Assembly: GCA_051531975.1 (NCBI GenBank) | Contig: JAOPTT010000007.1 | Coordinates: 152,985 to 216,984, forward strand | From: Spirochaetaceae bacterium | GTDB taxonomy: Bacteria > Spirochaetota > Spirochaetia > DSM-2461 | Direction of reading: 5' to 3' | Length of the DNA stretch: 64,000 bases | Shown: positions 22,215 through 62,674 of the stretch, in pieces | How the letters are laid out: every line of letters begins with the position of its first letter | How positions within the stretch are numbered: position 1 is the first letter of the stretch | Notes under the pieces: generated by a model | The model's database searches: none | What the model was told of the DNA's origin: nothing | What the model saw: the letters and a program-made list of their open reading frames with translations, nothing else | Program-made: the position numbers and the translations under genes

Positions 22215-22238
22215 TATGTAAGTTTCGCATAAGTGTTT

Positions 22239-22269
22239 AGCCACAGGGTATTAACCTTGTGGCTTTTTT
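22239..22269 (+). terminator. Intrinsic terminator of the ABC operon
   Basis: AGCCACAGGG-tattaa-CCTTGTGGCT followed by TTTTT. Confidence 0.85.
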
Positions 22270-22283
22270 GTTATAATAAATTC

Positions 22284-22877
22284 ATGAGTAAAAAAGATGC
22301 TATTTTAGATAGGGCTTCAGAAGTTTTTTTTAAGTTTGGTTTAACTAAAATCTCCATGGATGAACTTGCAGACCAAATTGGTATATCAAAAAAAACAATT
22401 TATAATAACTATGGCTCTAAGGAAAATTTATTAGAAGCTATTATATTTTCTAGTATGGAGAAAGTTTTAGAAGACATTACAAATCTTTTTGCTAGTACCG
22501 ATAAAACAATAGTTGAAAAGATCTTTTTAGCTATAAAACACGTCTATACCCAATATTCAAACTTTGAGGTTCCCACAAGGTCAGATCCCAATGCTGCTAG
22601 AATAATTTACTCTCCTGAATGTCTATTTTTAACAGACCAAATTCAAGATAATATTCGTAGATTAGCTATTGAAGGTCAACAAAAAGGTGTAATAAAGAAA
22701 CATATAAATATCGATATGGTTCCATTTATTTTCTTAAATAGTATTAGAGGTCTAGCTACATGGCAAAAACCTGAAAGTCTACCGTTTTCCAAATTAGAGT
22801 TAATGAGAAATTCAATCGAAATAATCTTAGATGGAATCTTAACACCTACTGCAATGAATGAGTATTTAAACTCATAA
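22284..22877 (+). CDS. TetR-family regulator
   Basis: 'ISMDELADQIGISKKTIYNNYGSKENL'. Start moved to ATG 22284; the ORF-track start lies just upstream of the terminator, so its extension runs through it. Confidence 0.93.
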   Translation: MSKKDAILDRASEVFFKFGLTKISMDELADQIGISKKTIYNNYGSKENLLEAIIFSSMEKVLEDITNLFASTDKTIVEKIFLAIKHVYTQYSNFEVPTRSDPNAARIIYSPECLFLTDQIQDNIRRLAIEGQQKGVIKKHINIDMVPFIFLNSIRGLATWQKPESLPFSKLELMRNSIEIILDGILTPTAMNEYLNS

Positions 22878-22883
22878 CATCTA

Positions 22884-22952
22884 TTGACTTCTAATTTTTA
22901 CCGTATTATTATTAAACTATAAATTACACTAATTACACTGCAAGAGTGTAAT
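22884..22952 (+). promoter_or_regulatory. Sigma70-type promoter and palindromic operator upstream of MMPL operon 1
   Basis: TTGACT(22884)-17-TATTAT(22907); palindrome ATTACACT-gcaag-AGTGTAAT at 22932-22952, with an extra AATTACACT half-site at 22922. Confidence 0.7.
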
Positions 22953-22968
22953 ATTAGAGGAATATAAT

Positions 22969-25605
22969 ATGGAAAAAATATGTAAGTATCCCAAAATAAC
23001 AGTAATAATTATAAGTATAATAACTCTGTTTTTTGCTTACAATTTAAAGAATGTCACTATAGATAATGACACAATGAAGTTTTTATCAGAAGATAACCCT
23101 GAGAGAATAGCAATTGATAAAGCAGATGATATCTTTGGCCCATCAATGGCAATGAGTGTTGGCCTTGAAATGAAAAAAGGAACAATCTTTACAGTCGAAG
23201 CCTTAGATGTTATTGATAAACTGACTAAAGAGTTTGAAGATTTAGATGGCGTTGATAGTATTCAATCGTTAACTAATAGTGATTTTATAGATGGAATAGA
23301 TGGCTCATTGGTTGTCTCTCCACTGGTTGAAGATTTTACAGGAAGCCCTGAGGATGTAACAACTTTAAAAGAGAAAATATTATCTTGGGATTTATACCAG
23401 GATCTTCTTGTTTCTAACGATTATAGTGCTTCTCAGATAATGGTTACTTTAAAAGAGGGTTTAGGTCCAGATGGACAAGAGAAGCTCTACCATGATCTAA
23501 AAAGAATTACTGAAAAATACGAAAATAGAAACATAAAGTTCTACTTAGCCGGTCTGCCATCTATGGTTGTTTTATTATCAACAAATATGATGTCTGACTT
23601 AATGGTCCTAATACCAATAGTTGTTATTGTTTTATTAATAGCTCTTTTCATATCGTTTAAAAGATTAAGTGGGATATTAATTCCTATGGTTACAGTTACA
23701 ATAAGTACTATTTGGACAATAGGTCTAATGGGTGTTTTAGGTGTACCATTATCTATTTTAGGTATTATTATACCAGTTTTAATGATGGCTGTAGGAAGTG
23801 CATATGGTATACATGTTATAAGCCATTATTATGATGATATTAAAGCTTATAAAGGTGAACTAACAGAAGAAAGCCATACTAATATTATATTAAAATCTCT
23901 TAGTTATGTAAAAAAACCAATATTTTTAGCTGGTTTAACAACTGTGGCAGGTTTTGCATCCCTATCTATTAGTTCAATAATCCCAATGAGGAATTTTGGT
24001 ATTTTTACCTCCGTTGGAATTATTTTTGCTCTGATAGTTGCCCTGACTTTAATACCATCACTTTTAGTTTTTAACTACAAAAGTACTAAAAAACATCGAT
24101 CCCAGATTGAGCATTCAAATAGTGGTTCAATGGAGAGGGCCTTAAGTACATATTATGAATCTTTTGGAAAAAGAAAGTATCTAATACTTTTCATGTCTTT
24201 AATAATAGTAATATTATCTGCTGTTGGAGCAAATAATTTAATTATTGATAACTCAATTGTTGAGTATTTCAAAAAAGATACTCATATAAGAACCTCTGAT
24301 CGGTTTTTAAGGGAGAAGTTTACAGGAACAACAACCTTTAATGTTATAATTAGTGGCGAAGGTGCCGGTGTCGATACCGAACTTCTAAATGCAATGGAAG
24401 GTCTTAGTATATTTTTAACCTCAAATTATGAACCTGTTAAAAAAGTTCTATCTTTTACGGATACAGTTAAACGGATGAATCAGGTTATGCATGTTGATGC
24501 AGAAGGGTCTGATGGTCTAGACGATTTTGATGATTATTCAGGTGAGTACGATTCCGATTTTGATGAGGATTCAGATAGCTTTTTTGAAGAATCTGATAGT
24601 TTCTACGATGAATCAGATAGTTTCTTCACTGACGATTCAGAAGATGAATATATGTTTACCGATGAAGAAACAGATGATGCCAATGTAATATTAACTACAG
24701 ATGGATTTATGGATATTATGTCCAAAGCTTATGCCATGGCAGATAACCCTAATATTTCAGCAAATGAGCTAATGACACTTCTAAAAAAAGAGACAAACTA
24801 CAAAGGTTTTGGATTTTTTGAAATACCAACTGATCCTGCTAAATATGGACATGATGAGTTAGAAGATCTATCCAATTTACTGAGTCAGTACTACGCTATG
24901 ACAGGTAAATTAGAAGGTTTTATAGGGCAAAATGATGATCCTCTTTCTCCTGAAAATATTAAGATGACAATAATGATGAATAACACAGGAAATATGTTTA
25001 CTAGAGAGATTATACCTGTTGTACAAAGTTATATTGATGACTATTTTCCTGAAGGTTACGACGTTTACCTTGCAGGTACAGCACTTGCTCAAGATTCTAC
25101 TACAAAGTTAATAACAAGTTCTGCAATGAATAGTATCTTTTTATCCCTACTTATGGTGTTTATCATACTATCTGTAGCTTACAAATCAGCATTTGCAGGT
25201 CTCTTTGGAATGATTCCATTAGCTTTTACTGTTCTGTTTAACTACGGACTTATGGGGCTTTTAGGCATAAAGTTAGACATGAGTACAGCAATGGTTGGAA
25301 GTATTGCCATAGGAATTGGTATTGATTATACAATCCACTTTATGGCCTCTTATCACAAATTTAGCCAAACAGAAACTTGTGAAGATACTGTTACTAAAAA
25401 GTCCCTAATGTCATCTGGGAAAGCCATAATTTTTAATGCACTATCGGTAGCTGCTGGTTTTACAGTTCTACTAAAATCAAACTTTAATCCACTAATGTAT
25501 TTAGGGTTTTTAATTGCAATTACAATGTTAGTAGCATCTATTGCATCAATGACAATAATGCCAGGATTATTAAATATATTTAAACCAAAGTTTATAAGAA
25601 AATAA
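22969..25605 (+). CDS. MMPL/RND-superfamily transporter (copy 1) with an acidic repeat insertion
   Basis: Two repeats of 1 TM + periplasmic domain + 5 TM; 'AVGSAYGIH' and 'GIGIDYTIHF'. Confidence 0.92.
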   Translation: MEKICKYPKITVIIISIITLFFAYNLKNVTIDNDTMKFLSEDNPERIAIDKADDIFGPSMAMSVGLEMKKGTIFTVEALDVIDKLTKEFEDLDGVDSIQSLTNSDFIDGIDGSLVVSPLVEDFTGSPEDVTTLKEKILSWDLYQDLLVSNDYSASQIMVTLKEGLGPDGQEKLYHDLKRITEKYENRNIKFYLAGLPSMVVLLSTNMMSDLMVLIPIVVIVLLIALFISFKRLSGILIPMVTVTISTIWTIGLMGVLGVPLSILGIIIPVLMMAVGSAYGIHVISHYYDDIKAYKGELTEESHTNIILKSLSYVKKPIFLAGLTTVAGFASLSISSIIPMRNFGIFTSVGIIFALIVALTLIPSLLVFNYKSTKKHRSQIEHSNSGSMERALSTYYESFGKRKYLILFMSLIIVILSAVGANNLIIDNSIVEYFKKDTHIRTSDRFLREKFTGTTTFNVIISGEGAGVDTELLNAMEGLSIFLTSNYEPVKKVLSFTDTVKRMNQVMHVDAEGSDGLDDFDDYSGEYDSDFDEDSDSFFEESDSFYDESDSFFTDDSEDEYMFTDEETDDANVILTTDGFMDIMSKAYAMADNPNISANELMTLLKKETNYKGFGFFEIPTDPAKYGHDELEDLSNLLSQYYAMTGKLEGFIGQNDDPLSPENIKMTIMMNNTGNMFTREIIPVVQSYIDDYFPEGYDVYLAGTALAQDSTTKLITSSAMNSIFLSLLMVFIILSVAYKSAFAGLFGMIPLAFTVLFNYGLMGLLGIKLDMSTAMVGSIAIGIGIDYTIHFMASYHKFSQTETCEDTVTKKSLMSSGKAIIFNALSVAAGFTVLLKSNFNPLMYLGFLIAITMLVASIASMTIMPGLLNIFKPKFIRK
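24571..24633 (+). repeat. In-frame 21-bp degenerate tandem repeat (SDSFFEE SDSFYDE SDSFFTD)
   Basis: tcagatagcttttttgaagaa / tctgatagtttctacgatgaa / tcagatagtttcttcactgac, inside a D/E-rich tract of about 60 aa. Confidence 0.85.
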
Positions 25606-25614
25606 GGAGATATA

Positions 25615-26388
25615 ATGAAAAAGATAATTTTAACAATATGTTTTATGTTAATAGCAGTTGCAGGTTTCTCTATTACAGGTAGAGATGTTATGGATAAAAT
25701 GGAAGCAAAAGAATCCCCTAAATCAAGCCATGCTTTAGTGGAACTATTAATAACAGAGTCTAATGGTTCAGTTAAAGATAGGGTTGTAGAGATGTGGAGC
25801 CTTACTGGTTCTAACGATTTAAATAGACAGATGATGGTTTTTAGAGCTCCAGCTTCAGTTAAAAACACTCGATTCCTAGTTAAAGAAAATGAAACTGGAG
25901 ATGATAAGTGGATATATATGCCTGCTCTTGGAAAAGTGAGAAGAATTGCAGCATCAGACGGTGACTCTGCTTTTATGGGCACAGAGTTTACCTACGACGA
26001 TATGTCTGGTGGAGATATTGATGACGATAAACACACTCTATTAAGAGAAGAAAAATTAGATGGATATAACTGTTACGTTGTAGAATCTATTCCTAAAGAT
26101 ATGTCAGATACCCAGTATAGCAGACGAGTCCAGTGGATAGTTAAAGATGATGATATATTAATGCCAATCAAAGTTGAGTTATACAATAAAAAGAACACTC
26201 TAAATAAGATCTTAACAATTAGCAAACTAGAAAATATTAATGGATTTTGGATACCAAGTAGTACTAAAATGGAAAACTTAATTAGTAAAAGATCTTCTGA
26301 AATTAATAACAAAAAAATAGAGCTAAATAAAAGAACAAATCCGGCATATTTTGAGAAAAGATTCTTAACTACTGGAAAGGTAAAATAG
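25615..26388 (+). CDS. LolA-like 'outer membrane lipoprotein-sorting' periplasmic protein (copy 1)
   Basis: Signal peptide; 'FRAPASVKNTRFL', 'WIYMPALGKVRRI', 'FMGTEFTYDD'. Confidence 0.88.
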   Translation: MKKIILTICFMLIAVAGFSITGRDVMDKMEAKESPKSSHALVELLITESNGSVKDRVVEMWSLTGSNDLNRQMMVFRAPASVKNTRFLVKENETGDDKWIYMPALGKVRRIAASDGDSAFMGTEFTYDDMSGGDIDDDKHTLLREEKLDGYNCYVVESIPKDMSDTQYSRRVQWIVKDDDILMPIKVELYNKKNTLNKILTISKLENINGFWIPSSTKMENLISKRSSEINNKKIELNKRTNPAYFEKRFLTTGKVK

Positions 26389-26390
26389 TA

Positions 26391-27821
26391 ATGTATATGA
26401 AAAAGAGTATTATTTATTTAATAGTTTTCCTACTTTTGGGTTTTGTTAATATCTCTGCTGACGATGAAGAAACTGAAAGTTTCTACACTGACGATAGCTT
26501 CTTCGAAGAGGATAGTTTTTTTGAAGAGGATGATTTTTTTGATGAAGGGAATGATCGTTTCTTCTCCACATCAATAGGAGGCGGATTTGGTCTAAATACA
26601 ACTTATATAGACGAAAATCCAAGTTTAAACTCTTTTGTGGATTTAGATATACTATTCGAAGCGGAATCATTTGATATTTCATTAAATATTGATGTGGATT
26701 TAAAAGGCCTAGATGATTTCAAAAACTTCCCTCTACAAGGTGGTGAATACGATACATCAACTTTTATAGATACATTTTTTATACGTTATTATCACTCTCT
26801 ATTTGACTTAGAAGTAGGACTTTTAAAACCAATATGGGGAAATGCCGATGGGATCCATGCTGTAGATGTCCTAAACCCTTTAGATTATTCAGATCCATTT
26901 GGTACAAGTTATTTAGATAGTAAAATATCACAGCAGATGATAAAAGTTAATGTCCCTGTTGGTGAAAATTCACTTTTAGAAATAGCATATTTACCTAAAT
27001 TTTATGGTGATAACATACCTATGGATGGAATCTGGACACCATACTATATCGCTAATATGGAGGATACAATCTATTTAATGGCTTTAGGGCAAGGAATGGA
27101 TTCAGCTACAGCTAGTGCTACTGCTACTGCCATTAAAGATACTTTAACATTTGAAGAACTTGATTATTTTGAATCTAGCCAAGCAGCTATAAGATTTACA
27201 ACATCAATAGATTCTGTAGATTTAGGTATAACTTATTTTAACGGTTATTTAAAACAACCTACTATAGATCCAGCTGACGTTATGTCCTCCGGAATTTTAA
27301 CTTTAGTATACAATGATGTGCAAACTATAGGTGTCGATATAGCAGCTGCAGTTGGTTCTTTTAATCTTAAAGGTGAAGTTGCGTATAATCTAACAGAAGA
27401 TACGGTCGGAGATGATGCAGGTATAAATAATAATTTTATTAAAGCTATTTTAGGTTTTGATGTTAATTTACCAATAAGCAATGTTAACTTTTTAATTCAG
27501 GGTGTCTCAACAATTATATTAGGTTCAGATAATATTACTTTGACTGACCCACAATACAGTTCAGATGATCAATATTATAGCCTAAATTTAATAGGTCGAC
27601 TTTCTGATAACTACTTAAACGAAACTCTTTATGTTGAAGTTGCAGCCGCTTATAATATTTTTGATGAAGACTATATGATTAAACCAAAAGTTACATATAA
27701 AGTATCAGATAATACAGATATATATTTAGAGTACCTGATGTTAGAAGGTGAAGAGACTACAGATCTTGGCCAATATAGTGATAACGATACTATTAAACTT
27801 GCATTTGAGTATAAGTTTTAA
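26391..27821 (+). CDS. Probable outer-membrane beta-barrel (DUF1302-like) with acidic N-terminal repeats
   Basis: Signal peptide; 'FDLEVGLLKPIWGNADGIHAVDVLNP'; amphipathic strands; C-terminal 'LAFEYKF' beta-signal. Confidence 0.75.
   Translation: MYMKKSIIYLIVFLLLGFVNISADDEETESFYTDDSFFEEDSFFEEDDFFDEGNDRFFSTSIGGGFGLNTTYIDENPSLNSFVDLDILFEAESFDISLNIDVDLKGLDDFKNFPLQGGEYDTSTFIDTFFIRYYHSLFDLEVGLLKPIWGNADGIHAVDVLNPLDYSDPFGTSYLDSKISQQMIKVNVPVGENSLLEIAYLPKFYGDNIPMDGIWTPYYIANMEDTIYLMALGQGMDSATASATATAIKDTLTFEELDYFESSQAAIRFTTSIDSVDLGITYFNGYLKQPTIDPADVMSSGILTLVYNDVQTIGVDIAAAVGSFNLKGEVAYNLTEDTVGDDAGINNNFIKAILGFDVNLPISNVNFLIQGVSTIILGSDNITLTDPQYSSDDQYYSLNLIGRLSDNYLNETLYVEVAAAYNIFDEDYMIKPKVTYKVSDNTDIYLEYLMLEGEETTDLGQYSDNDTIKLAFEYKF
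26493..26546 (+). repeat. In-frame 18-bp tandem repeat (DSFFEE DSFFEE DDFFDE)
   Basis: gatagcttcttcgaagag / gatagtttttttgaagag / gatgatttttttgatgaa. Confidence 0.85.
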
Positions 27822-59207: not shown

Positions 59208-59798
59208 TTGGCTGCAAAACGTTACGATGGTAAACAAAAACAGATAGAAAATGCTGCATTAGAAGTTTATATGGAGTTAGGGCTAGAAAATTTAACTTTA
59301 GAATCTGTTGCAGAAAAACTCGGATATACTAAACAAGCAATCTACTATTACTTTCGTAATAAAGAAAAACTTATAAGCTCGTTTTGTTTCAACATACTTA
59401 AAAATGCTCGGGATGAGTTTGTTGAAATATATTCCCAGGATTTAAACCCTGTGGAGAAAATGGAAGCAATCATTTTCTATTATGTTAATGGAACCTGTCT
59501 TAAAAAGGGCTTTTTTGCTCTGCAACATGATTTTAAAAGAATAATACCTCTTATGGATAATTTAAAAGAAATTATAAAAATGAAATCTCAGATATCTAAA
59601 GGATTTGAAGATGTTATCACAGAAGGAATCGAAAAAGGTCTATTTAGAGAAGAGGATACTGAGGCACTTGCTGGAACAGTATTTATGTTGTTAGGTGGAG
59701 CTATATCAATGACTGAGATTCCTGGTCTAAAGGACTTACCAACCAACAGAAAAGTGGAATTAATAACAGATATAATAATTAAAGGAATACAAGCATGA
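59208..59798 (+). CDS. TetR-family regulator
   Basis: 'LTLESVAEKLGYTKQAIYYYFRNKEKL'; TTG start. Confidence 0.93.
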   Translation: MAAKRYDGKQKQIENAALEVYMELGLENLTLESVAEKLGYTKQAIYYYFRNKEKLISSFCFNILKNARDEFVEIYSQDLNPVEKMEAIIFYYVNGTCLKKGFFALQHDFKRIIPLMDNLKEIIKMKSQISKGFEDVITEGIEKGLFREEDTEALAGTVFMLLGGAISMTEIPGLKDLPTNRKVELITDIIIKGIQA

Positions 59799-62674
59799 AT
59801 AAAGTTTTTAAATCAGTGGCAAATTTTATAGTAAATTTCCCAGTTCTTATTATTGGTGTAACACTAATAGCATTGGTAACCCTTGGATTTGGGGCGTCTC
59901 GTCTGAAAATGGATTCGGATATGACAGACGATATCCCATCAACTATTCCTGAGAAAGCATTTTATGATGAGGTTGGGAAGATCTTTCCAGCAGACGATGC
60001 TCTAATAATCGCATTAACAGATGAAGATGGAGCTTTTTCTCCCGGTTCTCTAAGGCAAGTTTATGAGTGGTCAAATAAGATTAAAGATGTAGAAGATGTA
60101 AAAAGTATTTTATCTCTAAGTACTGCTAGCCTTATTACTGGTAATGAGTATGGAATAGTTATTGAAAATACCATGGAGTTTTTACCAGTTACACCAACAG
60201 AAATTGCTAGTTTTAAAAAACGTATGGACAGTAATGAGATGGGTGGTGCTTTAGTTGGAAGAGATGGAAAAGCATCAGCAATGATGATCGGTATTTCCAC
60301 CGAAGCTGATATTAAAAATAGACCTCGATATATTATTAACCTACCAAAATTAACTACTGATGTTGAAATGAATACTATAAAAGAAGATATTATGAATTTA
60401 ACGGATTCGGAAGGTCTTGCTGTTATTCGTAGGATATATTCTAGTGGTAATGGTTCAGATGAGTTTGATGCTTTAGGAAGTTACAATCAGAAAATAGGCT
60501 TAACAGAAAAAAATATTGTATTATTAGTTGTACCTGAAGAATCAGTTATTACTCCCCTTCTTTTAATAGATATTACATCATTAGTTGAACAGAAAGGAGG
60601 TTCGGTTAATTTTTCAGATTCCCAAGTTGCAATGTATGACAGAATGAGTTCTATAGTAGAAACCCTTCCAAAATATAGCAAAGGTAAAGTATATATATCA
60701 GGTTCTAAAGCTGTATCCAGTGTAGTTGGAAAACTAATGATGAAGGATTTAAGTGTACTCTTTCCTATTGTAATCCTAATTATTATAGTTGTCCTATTTT
60801 TAAGTTTTAGAACATTCCGAGGTGTATTATTACCATTAACAAATGTATTAATGGCTACAGTAATGGCAATGGGTTTTATGGGTTGGGCTAATCAACCAAT
60901 ATCAATGGCCACAATGATTTTGCCAATTATATTAATTGCTGTTGGAACCGCCTATGCCATTCATGTTCTAAATAGATATTATGAGGAACTAACCACTGAG
61001 GATGATAAGAAAAAAGCAATTGTTTTAGCACTTGAACATGTAGCAGTTCCTACACTTTTAGCTGCAATTACAACTATGATAGGTTTTGCATCCTTAGCAA
61101 TATCATCAATTACAGCCCTAAGAATTTACGGACTGTTAGCAGCACTAGGTATACTGTTTGCACTTATATTAGCTGTATCTTTTACACCTGCTGTATTGGT
61201 TTTATTAAAAAAAACATCCATCAAAAATGTAAAAAGCCACGAAAACAATATGTTATCAAAAATTCTAGAGAAGATAGGTAAGTTTGTATCTACCAAACCA
61301 AAACTTACACTTTCTTTGTGTCTTGTTGTAATAATTATTGCAGCAACAGGAATACCTAAAATACTGTTTGAAACCAACTCTGTAGAGTCCTTTAAAAAGA
61401 GTACGGAGATTAGACAGTCCTCTGAATATCTAAATGATAATTTTACAGGGATCACAATTCTTAATGTAATAGTTCAGGCAGAAGAAGAAGGAGCAATTTT
61501 AGATCCAGAAATCTTAAAGGCAATAGACGATCTACAAAGAGACTTTGAGAAACTACGTTTTGAAGGTAAAACAATGTTACTGCCTGGGGATAAAGGATAC
61601 GATACTGCTGAGGACTTAATTGGTGGTACCCAATCTATAGCAACGTTTATTCGAGGTATAAATAAGGCTATGCATGCCGATGATCCAGCATGGGATAAAG
61701 TTCCTGATTTCGAAACAGAAGTCGCAGTAACAACAGAAAAATATGTTTATAACGATGGTGTTCTACAAGAGATCGATTCAGACTACTTAGATGTTCTTGA
61801 GACATTTATAGAGGGTGATGATTTTATTATAGAAGACGGTTTTATAACAATGGAAAGATATGGAATGCAAAGACGGATTTCTCTTCCTGAAGGAACATCT
61901 GTGGATCTGATTCCGGGACGTGTATATGCTGGACAACTTGTATTTCAGTATGAGAACTCTGGAGATCCTGAGAATATTGAAGCATTTATAGATAACCCAA
62001 GAAAAACTGCTCAGATAAATATTTTTATTAGAACAGGTAGTTCCACAGTATCAAACCAGATTGAGAAGTATACTAGGGAGTATATAAAAAATAACTTCCC
62101 GGATTCTGCTAAGGCTGATATAACAGGGCTTTCTGCACTTAATTTAACAATAATGAGGCTTTTAACTAATACTCAAATATCTTCTGTAATTGCATCATTA
62201 GTAATAATACTGTTTATGATTTCTCTAATTAACAGAAGTGTAGTAGAAGGGTTATTCTCAATTATACCTTTAACAGCATCCTTAATTATTAATTTTGGGA
62301 TTATGGGGCTATTTGCAATCCCTGTAGATATTTCCACAGCTACAATAGCATCAATTGCCATAGGTATTGGTATAGATTATACCCTTCATTTCCTGGAGAG
62401 GTTTAAAATAATGGCAAAGACAATGGAGCATGGAATTGCACTTCAGACAACACTAAAAACTACTGGAAGAGGTATTATATATAATGCTATAGCAGTAGCA
62501 GGGGGATTTTTAGCCCTAATGTTTAGCCAGATAAAAGGTAATTTCTACATGGGACTTTTAATGGCTATTATCATGGTCGTTGCATCAACTTTTGCAATAA
62601 TATTGTTACCAGCGGTAATTATGATTGTTAAACCTAAATTTATTACAAATATATCAAATAAGGAGAAAATATAA
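59795..62674 (+). CDS. MMPL/RND-superfamily transporter (copy 2)
   Basis: 'AVGTAYAIHV', 'GIGIDYTLHF'; same topology as copy 1 with different periplasmic insertions. Confidence 0.92.
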   Translation: MNKVFKSVANFIVNFPVLIIGVTLIALVTLGFGASRLKMDSDMTDDIPSTIPEKAFYDEVGKIFPADDALIIALTDEDGAFSPGSLRQVYEWSNKIKDVEDVKSILSLSTASLITGNEYGIVIENTMEFLPVTPTEIASFKKRMDSNEMGGALVGRDGKASAMMIGISTEADIKNRPRYIINLPKLTTDVEMNTIKEDIMNLTDSEGLAVIRRIYSSGNGSDEFDALGSYNQKIGLTEKNIVLLVVPEESVITPLLLIDITSLVEQKGGSVNFSDSQVAMYDRMSSIVETLPKYSKGKVYISGSKAVSSVVGKLMMKDLSVLFPIVILIIIVVLFLSFRTFRGVLLPLTNVLMATVMAMGFMGWANQPISMATMILPIILIAVGTAYAIHVLNRYYEELTTEDDKKKAIVLALEHVAVPTLLAAITTMIGFASLAISSITALRIYGLLAALGILFALILAVSFTPAVLVLLKKTSIKNVKSHENNMLSKILEKIGKFVSTKPKLTLSLCLVVIIIAATGIPKILFETNSVESFKKSTEIRQSSEYLNDNFTGITILNVIVQAEEEGAILDPEILKAIDDLQRDFEKLRFEGKTMLLPGDKGYDTAEDLIGGTQSIATFIRGINKAMHADDPAWDKVPDFETEVAVTTEKYVYNDGVLQEIDSDYLDVLETFIEGDDFIIEDGFITMERYGMQRRISLPEGTSVDLIPGRVYAGQLVFQYENSGDPENIEAFIDNPRKTAQINIFIRTGSSTVSNQIEKYTREYIKNNFPDSAKADITGLSALNLTIMRLLTNTQISSVIASLVIILFMISLINRSVVEGLFSIIPLTASLIINFGIMGLFAIPVDISTATIASIAIGIGIDYTLHFLERFKIMAKTMEHGIALQTTLKTTGRGIIYNAIAVAGGFLALMFSQIKGNFYMGLLMAIIMVVASTFAIILLPAVIMIVKPKFITNISNKEKI

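Follow-up and report, generated by a model that had tools for sequence, protein, structure and literature searches.

Matched acidic-aromatic tethers on the inner-membrane pump and the outer-membrane barrel of a spirochaetal operon, with its LolA-like carrier as the candidate shared partner

Introduction

How soluble carriers find two membranes across a wide and crowded periplasm is understood for only a few structured interfaces, such as those of the Lol and Mla systems. Triads of DUF1302, DUF1329 and resistance-nodulation-division (RND) proteins, represented by PP_0765-0766 with PP_2018-2019 in P. putida, Sama_1588-1591 in Shewanella and AmeABCD in Castellaniella, are widespread and so far without biochemistry. 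Proposals on such triads stand in the covered portions of several papers (PMC10866462; PMC13499233; bioRxiv 072470; PMC6304351; PMC6394551), which present models in which the DUF1329 carrier touches both the barrel and the RND pump (PMC10866462; PMC13499233, interface predicted TM-score (ipTM) 0.84), cofitness of the triad genes (bioRxiv 072470), a reduced monoterpene tolerance upon deletion (PMC6394551), and 18 strands for the DUF1302-type barrel (PMC13499233). Here we describe an operon of RND pump, LolA-like carrier and barrel genes in a 64,000-nucleotide stretch (the window) of contig JAOPTT010000007.1 from a Spirochaetaceae bacterium (GCA_051531975.1, positions 152,985 to 216,984 of the forward strand), in which the pump and the barrel bear matching acidic-aromatic tracts, hereafter tags.

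This operon is of the triad type previously proposed as a transport system, and like the known triads it combines an HAE3-type pump, a LolA-like periplasmic protein and a DUF1302-type barrel. However, its carrier is of the shorter PF17131 type rather than DUF1329, and the fourth BNR-repeat or periplasmic protein of the known triads is not seen among the neighbours here; the covered text portions on those triads mention no acidic-aromatic tethers. The nearest solved relative of the carrier is P. gingivalis LolA3 (PDB 9TP6, E 1e-41), for which the covered part of its description gives a hydrophobic groove, a convex face that bears the C-terminal helix, little or no binding to LolB and a suggested separate function (PMC13103446), while deletion of F. 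johnsoniae LolA3 left gliding unaffected according to the covered part of PMC11885536. We propose that both tags act as flexible docks and serve a single site on the carrier, a reading to which we assign a probability of roughly 0.6.

Results

The first gene of the operon (22969..25605, plus strand) encodes an HAE3/MMPL-type inner-membrane pump of 878 amino acids, with the two MMPL repeats, 12 transmembrane (TM) helices and two periplasmic porter domains of that type, and it is followed on the same strand by genes for the 257-residue PF17131 carrier (25615..26388) and for a DUF1302-like outer-membrane barrel of 476 residues with a signal peptide at residues 1-23 and a C-terminal Phe (26391..27821). 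The pump tag (24496..24681, plus strand; residues 510-571), a loop in the second periplasmic domain, holds 30 Asp/Glu, 12 aromatic and no Lys/Arg residues within 62 positions, and includes the repeats SDSFFEE (24571), SDSFYDE (24592) and SDSFFTD (24613) at 21-bp spacing (span 24571-24633). The barrel tag, the N-terminal tail of the mature barrel (26460..26555, plus strand; residues 24-55), starts directly after the 23-residue signal peptide and has 17 Asp/Glu, 8 aromatic and no Lys/Arg residues, with the repeats ESFYTD (26475), DSFFEE (26493 and 26511) and DDFFDE (26529) at 18-bp spacing (span 26475-26546). The repeat positions and unit lengths given by an initial annotation of this DNA agree with the sequence.

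The pump matches Pfam MMPL at 5e-49, and its best family is TIGR00921 (HAE3), at 248.5 bits and below the curated cut-off of 351.9. Its AlphaFold2 model, built on an alignment of 88 pumps (predicted local distance difference test (pLDDT) 90, predicted TM-score (pTM) 0.86), has an MmpL-like fold with MmpL4/MmpL5 as the top Foldseek matches. Only residues 514-572 fall below a pLDDT of 50, and they lie between helices 403-422 and 704-737, which we read as TM7 and TM8; the pump tract is thus predicted to be a disordered periplasmic loop, and its place in the second periplasmic domain of the model bears out the periplasmic location initially annotated. Directly after it comes a small helical subdomain (24697..24816, plus strand; residues 577-616; three confident helices in the model), and both belong to one clade-specific insertion. 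D786 and Y279 are invariant across the 88 pumps; the motifs at 23791-23814 and 25312-25338 are a TM4 Ala-Tyr and a TM10 Asp-Tyr, so this pump has only one of the two Asp of the MmpL3-type relay. The barrel tail probably also faces the periplasm, given its position before the first strand and general barrel topology. The barrel itself has no Pfam match, PF06980 (DUF1302) included, whereas its best Atlas matches (0.98) belong to clusters with DUF1302 on 10-29% of members, and 9 of 73 barrel homologues match DUF1302; no solved structural relative of it was found.

The pattern [DE][DS]F[FY][DET][DE], which was derived from these two proteins themselves, occurs in at least three copies only in the window's pump and barrel among the 6008 open reading frames (ORFs) of the genome, and in one copy in four others. 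A secreted protein outside any triad (C19:19706-20830) has a single EDSFFDD near its mature N-terminus, by chance or possibly as a further client. The motif is absent from the pump and the barrel N-terminus of the paralogous operon at 59.2-64 kb, as initially annotated; the pump of that operon (window 59795-62674) has an insertion of about 65 residues in the matching loop region, which is acidic with several Phe and not low-complexity, and one of about 100 residues in the first periplasmic domain. In the same genomes, six paralogous operons with readable loops have a short pump loop and barrels without a tail before the first strand, and such a barrel tail is likewise missing from the other triads of this genome (the ABC-type one on C9, those on C13 and at 564 kb of C6, and the window paralogue).

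Matched peptides of 45 operons share 104 of 228 synonymous codons versus 107.6 expected, and with no excess of synonymous identity DNA copying between the tracts is ruled out, while by eye one 18-bp stretch of the window tracts is identical at 17 of 18 positions between pump and barrel. Since the codons are no more alike than chance, the match is at the peptide level, which agrees with the original view of a shared peptide motif rather than a recent DNA copy.

The comparison of homologous operons proposed in the initial annotation shows that the tracts both co-occur and co-vary. The pump loop and barrel N-terminus were readable at 111 of 190 loci, and 95 operons remained after removal of 16 near-duplicates; by a fixed rule both tracts are present in 81 of them, neither in 10 and one in 4. 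Two of these four, L040 and L070, were affected by tract trimming or threshold and were added by hand to the class with both tracts, which gives 83/95, and the other two are Bacteroidales barrels whose acidic tail has one or two aromatics; the Bacteroidales operons of the sample have short pump loops. The tract of L073 was delimited by hand and the helical insert of L066 was excluded. The whole pump insertion is missing from one clade (L007, L037, L314, L320 and L326; support 98), the helical subdomain being gone together with the tract, and the barrels of this clade keep the tag in L320, a degenerate single Phe in L007 and L314, and no tail in L037 and L326. The helical subdomain is retained in L073, L123, L149, L150, L187, L188 and L327, pumps that have the tract in another loop or have lost it.

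Across operons the motif occurs as SFF, SFY, FGF, DDW or PPLGF, so that the di-Phe at first taken as the motif is just one variant among several. The variants are paired between pump and barrel, for example SSFYQ with GSFYG in Halanaerobium, DFGFG with QDFGFG in termite-gut Treponema, DDWGD with QDDWGS in L081, TSDFG with SDFGS in L039, and DSFDD with DDFDDF in L055. Cognate tracts have a similarity of 0.55 versus 0.34 for non-cognate ones, which exceeds all 10,000 permutations, with a median rank of 11/81. Kinship was taken into account by contrasts on a FastTree tree made without the tracts, the traits being picked after the data were seen: the mean contrast cosine is 0.103 (null standard deviation 0.019), and pump and barrel correlate in adjacent aromatics (r 0.41, p 0.0014), number of aromatics (0.42, p 0.0012), Trp (0.63, p 0.006), aromatic-Gly (0.31, p 0.007), FxF (0.38, p 0.027) and length (0.30, p 0.005). 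These correlations are barely altered by the GC content at third codon positions (GC3), and the cross-trait matrix is diagonal. For pumps more than 0.9 apart on the tree, the similarity of a tract to the tail of its cognate barrel (0.51-0.58) exceeds that to the tracts of other pumps (0.31-0.46). A later sample of 70 loci included 24 duplicates, and both tracts were parsed in 28 of the other 46 (L333 was mis-parsed); there the cognate similarity is 0.45 versus 0.34 with a median rank of 6/28, kinship being uncontrolled. In L331, the only operon in which pump and barrel share PPLGF, the pump has two copies of the motif and the barrel one, while the nearest relative, L329, has FGF in both. The proposed shared docking motif is therefore present on both membrane partners and co-varies beyond kinship in the RND family.

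The motif also occurs at a second position in pumps. In the Treponema-type pumps of L073, L123, L149, L150, L187 and L188 the usual loop has no tract and an FDF tract stands in another loop of the same domain. L073, the sole one of these operons with a linked barrel, had counted as a discordant case until its pump tract was found in this second loop; its barrel starts DDFGFDFG, a match of rank 1/81. The other five pumps are linked to a carrier that has no barrel adjoining it, and the motif could thus help to find their unlinked barrels. The loop used by the second-loop clade for its tract tolerates insertions, as seen from L059 and L066, which have a charged, helical insertion of about 60 residues at this place.

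A scan of the genome for acidic-aromatic tails found two further systems outside the window, both with a LolD-like ATPase, two FtsX/MacB permeases, a PF17131 carrier and a related barrel. In one (C2:355293-361115, minus strand; L211:8294-14115) the first permease and the barrel share FDFD-[SD]-MF, and in the other (C6:243986-249861, minus strand; L212:2986-8861) a permease, which has an extra domain of about 120 residues, shares DDLF with the barrel. One genome thus holds three different matched pairs, DSFF, FDFD-MF and DDLF. When each of the three transporter tracts is compared with the 124 ORFs that have an acidic-aromatic window, self-matches set aside, its own barrel scores highest (0.78, 0.74 and 0.49; runners-up 0.68, 0.69 and 0.42). 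Of 51 ABC loci, 33 were kept after permease, carrier and barrel were required and near-duplicates were dropped, as was L234, whose next gene is not a barrel; with a pattern built from these data, the motif, here a conserved single unit, is found in 32/33 permeases and 32/33 barrels, and on both sides in 31/33 operons. The same design thus recurs on an unrelated ABC permease with like carrier and barrel types. A tract-less ABC-type triad of the same genome (C9:164868-172417) has four permease genes, two on either side of the carrier and barrel.

The carrier scores 200 bits against the PF17131 gathering score of 30 (Pfam 3.5e-59), and its signal peptide was read from the sequence. The basic patch ALGKVRRI (25924) and the Lys-rich C-terminal third that had first been singled out are present, the last 86 residues holding 14 Lys, but they are family-wide rather than matched to the tracts: the same basic patch (4 Lys/Arg in 5 positions) occurs in 12/12 tract-less carriers, the window carrier as a whole has a net charge of 0, and 9-15 Lys stand in the final 86 residues of every other PF17131-type carrier of the genome, six in all. 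They were thus rejected as a tract-specific receptor. As a lead only, H39, L41, E59, W61, V75, R86 and L88 form a candidate tag-binding surface. R86 is invariant in 90/90 tract-clade carriers versus 1/22 tract-less ones, and 9TP6 has Gly in its place. Operons with FF/FY tags have H39 and E59 in 26/26 carriers and W61 in 25/26, whereas carriers of FxF operons mostly have R41, D59 and Y61 (20-21/22), and those of the second-loop clade G59 and Y61. By coupling analysis, positions 39 and 41 adjoin 59 and the C-terminal helix adjoins 86 and 88; the side of that helix is the convex face according to the covered part of PMC13103446, and the tag site may lie on the outer face of strands 1-4. Among 15 tests, one carrier column passes the family-wise test against the tag (p 0.024), and these residues are only suggestive as the tag site. 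Co-folding the carrier with barrel residues 1-34 scored 0.00 in two runs with no control folds, which is evidence neither way.

Upstream of the pump gene lies a TetR-family regulator gene (22233..22877, plus strand; Pfam TetR_N), whose annotated start is overlapped by a terminator-like hairpin (22239-22264), which suggests a later ATG as the true start. Between the two genes, on the plus strand, stand a promoter-like site TTGACT-17-TATTAT (22884-22912), a consensus match of a kind found 5 times versus 5.5 expected, and 3′ of it an 8-bp perfect inverted repeat (22932-22952), read from the sequence as a candidate TetR operator; no exact copy of this arrangement was present in 333 loci. Among the 82 neighbour ORFs scanned of 126 listed, the only recurring neighbours are TetR (18) and MarR (5) regulators, with no fourth conserved structural gene and, within 3.5 kb of the carrier, no BNR-repeat protein, an unlinked copy of which was not sought. 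The named homologues are mainly from Spirochaetota, with others in Halanaerobiales, Fusobacteriota and elsewhere. In the GTDB contig scan a single-protein query gave no matches and an alignment query did, matches to the carrier alignment being present in 122 of the 301 genomes from the class with tract-less relatives counted in. Two near-identical carrier genes 6 kb apart (L267 and L294; G344:C1:4.015-4.022 Mb) appear to be a tandem operon duplication.

Discussion

Based on these findings, we propose that each tract is a copy of a single short linear docking motif, borne on a long acidic and disordered tether that would reach into the periplasm from the inner or the outer membrane. Both tags would bind the same carrier surface, with low affinity and with avidity through the repeats, and would capture the carrier and keep it close to the periplasmic domain of the pump or the mouth of the barrel, so that a single carrier could alternate between two equivalent docks while hydrophobic cargo travels in its cavity. 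As the two tags are read by a single site, an alteration of one would in time be repeated in the other, and the motif would be kept on non-homologous membrane proteins because something reads both. The carrier is the probable binding partner, since it must visit both membranes, stays linked to pumps where no barrel adjoins it, and is joined by no recurring fourth structural gene. The TetR/MarR control, together with the Tween 20 use, monoterpene tolerance and envelope effects of related triads, points to a lipid or other hydrophobic small molecule as the cargo. More tentatively, and at somewhat less than even odds, LolA-like carriers may in general be recruited at both membranes by one short linear motif on disordered tethers, which RND pumps (in two loops) and ABC permeases would have acquired independently of each other, with tag and carrier surface co-evolving as an address code by which each carrier family is assigned its pump and pore.

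Several results weigh against the docking of both tags on the carrier. The evidence from presence and absence rests on very few events, namely the tract clade itself, one loss clade and L327, and since tract-less triads are common, the basic system can do without the tags. Of the eight traits, chosen post hoc, six correlate on the tree and four stay within the Bonferroni bound; the FxxF spacing shows no contrast correlation and FY is not significant. The contrast sign tests are weak (48/78 positive, p 0.054; aromatic-only 39/65, p 0.14), the L/M/I variants of the ABC family show no significant tree-controlled co-variation (r 0.06-0.17), and L295 and L296 combine Trp-rich pump tracts with SFF barrels. 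On the carrier, R86 is kept in 3/3 loss operons and its site is by eye a Gly in the ABC carrier, and the link between carrier residues and tag rests on about two independent pairs (p 0.5). Furthermore, sister-tip contrasts are positive in 9 cases and negative in 12, and the non-aromatic composition co-varies too, in 66/81 contrasts, so a genome-wide bias acts on both tracts. Among five same-genome pairs of tract-bearing RND operons the cognate match is slightly better in one, tied in one and worse in three, which does not support strict operon insulation; the margins in G001 and G002 are small.

These last observations, with the co-varying repeat number and length and with pump repeats that resemble slippage products (the L002 tract has seven perfect units), are what would be expected if there were no shared protein partner and the tracts were generic acidic-aromatic low-complexity tethers that contact cations, the membrane surface or the cargo, and that match through descent and compositional or slippage bias. 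However, common descent by itself cannot give a shared motif to pump and barrel, which are non-homologous; when traits are taken singly, the aromatics co-vary in spacing and in identity, independently of GC3, three different matched pairs coexist in one genome, and PPLGF appears in both proteins of a single operon only. We consider such an origin unlikely.

The losses themselves bear on where a shared site would lie. In L320 and L327 the pump tract is lost and the barrel tag retained, while no barrel-only loss was seen among the operons compared, and control columns of the barrel and pump reach p 0.022 and 0.043, like that of the carrier, all of which tells against a site on the carrier. If the site were instead on the barrel (or the pump), the barrel tail could serve as a self-plug or gate, which the pump loop would mimic and displace to open the pore; the N-terminal hatches of FadL-type barrels offer a precedent, and matching and co-variation would be explained equally well. 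Yet a 60-residue pump loop would, as estimated from commonly known dimensions, probably not span the periplasm and peptidoglycan, the five second-loop pumps stay linked to the carrier with no adjoining barrel, and barrel columns track the variants no better than carrier columns, and thus we regard a barrel-borne or pump-borne site as improbable.

The composition of the tracts suggests one more possibility, that they bind each other or the cargo like FG repeats, meeting in mid-periplasm, perhaps bridged by Ca2+ or Mg2+, to form a sticky aromatic path for carrier or cargo. Many variants are indeed FG-rich and multivalent, both tracts are disordered or low-complexity, and their numbers of aromatics match (r 0.42). 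Nevertheless, both are strongly acidic with no Lys/Arg, the tail of many barrels is 9-14 residues long with a single motif (as in L004, L039, L047 and L054), insufficient for a cohesive phase, and the ABC-family motif is a single unit, so that this appears the least probable of the alternatives, and docking on the carrier is retained as the favoured interpretation.

The initial annotation had drawn an analogy with the eukaryotic motif of a phenylalanine pair within an acidic tract (FFAT), and there is a likeness, in that an aromatic pair in an acidic disordered stretch would localise lipid transfer. The analogy fails on sequence and on geometry. The FFAT core (EFFDAxE-like) occurs in 0/232 tracts by a strict or a relaxed pattern, and non-FF variants are common here. 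A search for the MSP domain of VAP (PF00635) matched neither this genome nor any control genome, and speaks neither for nor against the analogy. The FFAT motif is carried by the transfer protein, and its binding partner, VAP, is anchored in the membrane (covered part of PMC8667587), whereas here the tag is on the membrane proteins and not on the carrier, so the direction is inverted, and FFAT membership was rejected. In MucA-MucB and RseA-RseB a LolA-like half-barrel also binds the periplasmic tail of an inner-membrane protein, as well as lipid (covered part of PMC7400510), but these are signalling systems with one partner, a helix inserted in the cavity and no matching outer-membrane tag.

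In the literature searched, which left supplements and most subscription papers outside its coverage, no description of matched acidic-aromatic tethers was found, and there is none in the covered parts of PMC13078400, PMC8407342, PMC13749626, PMC13103446, PMC11885536, PMC7400510 and PMC8667587. In conclusion, the feature is real, conserved and co-evolving; the triad and a carrier that contacts both membranes had already been proposed, and the matched tethers appear to be new. The motif variants offer a means to assign unlinked barrels to their pumps by sequence.

There is also a likeness to LolCDE-LolA-LolB, in which a soluble carrier of the LolA fold is handed between inner- and outer-membrane partners, and the ABC-type relatives described here, with a LolD-like ATPase and two FtsX/MacB permeases, resemble LolCDE further. 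However, the Lol docking elements are structured and differ between the membranes, those of LolC being a hook and pad. LolB docks through a loop (covered part of PMC13103446). Here the same disordered motif stands at both membranes, the outer partner is a barrel and the inner partner in the window is an RND pump, and one linear motif at both ends would, if true, give bacteria an equivalent of the logic by which motifs and tethers work at eukaryotic contact sites.

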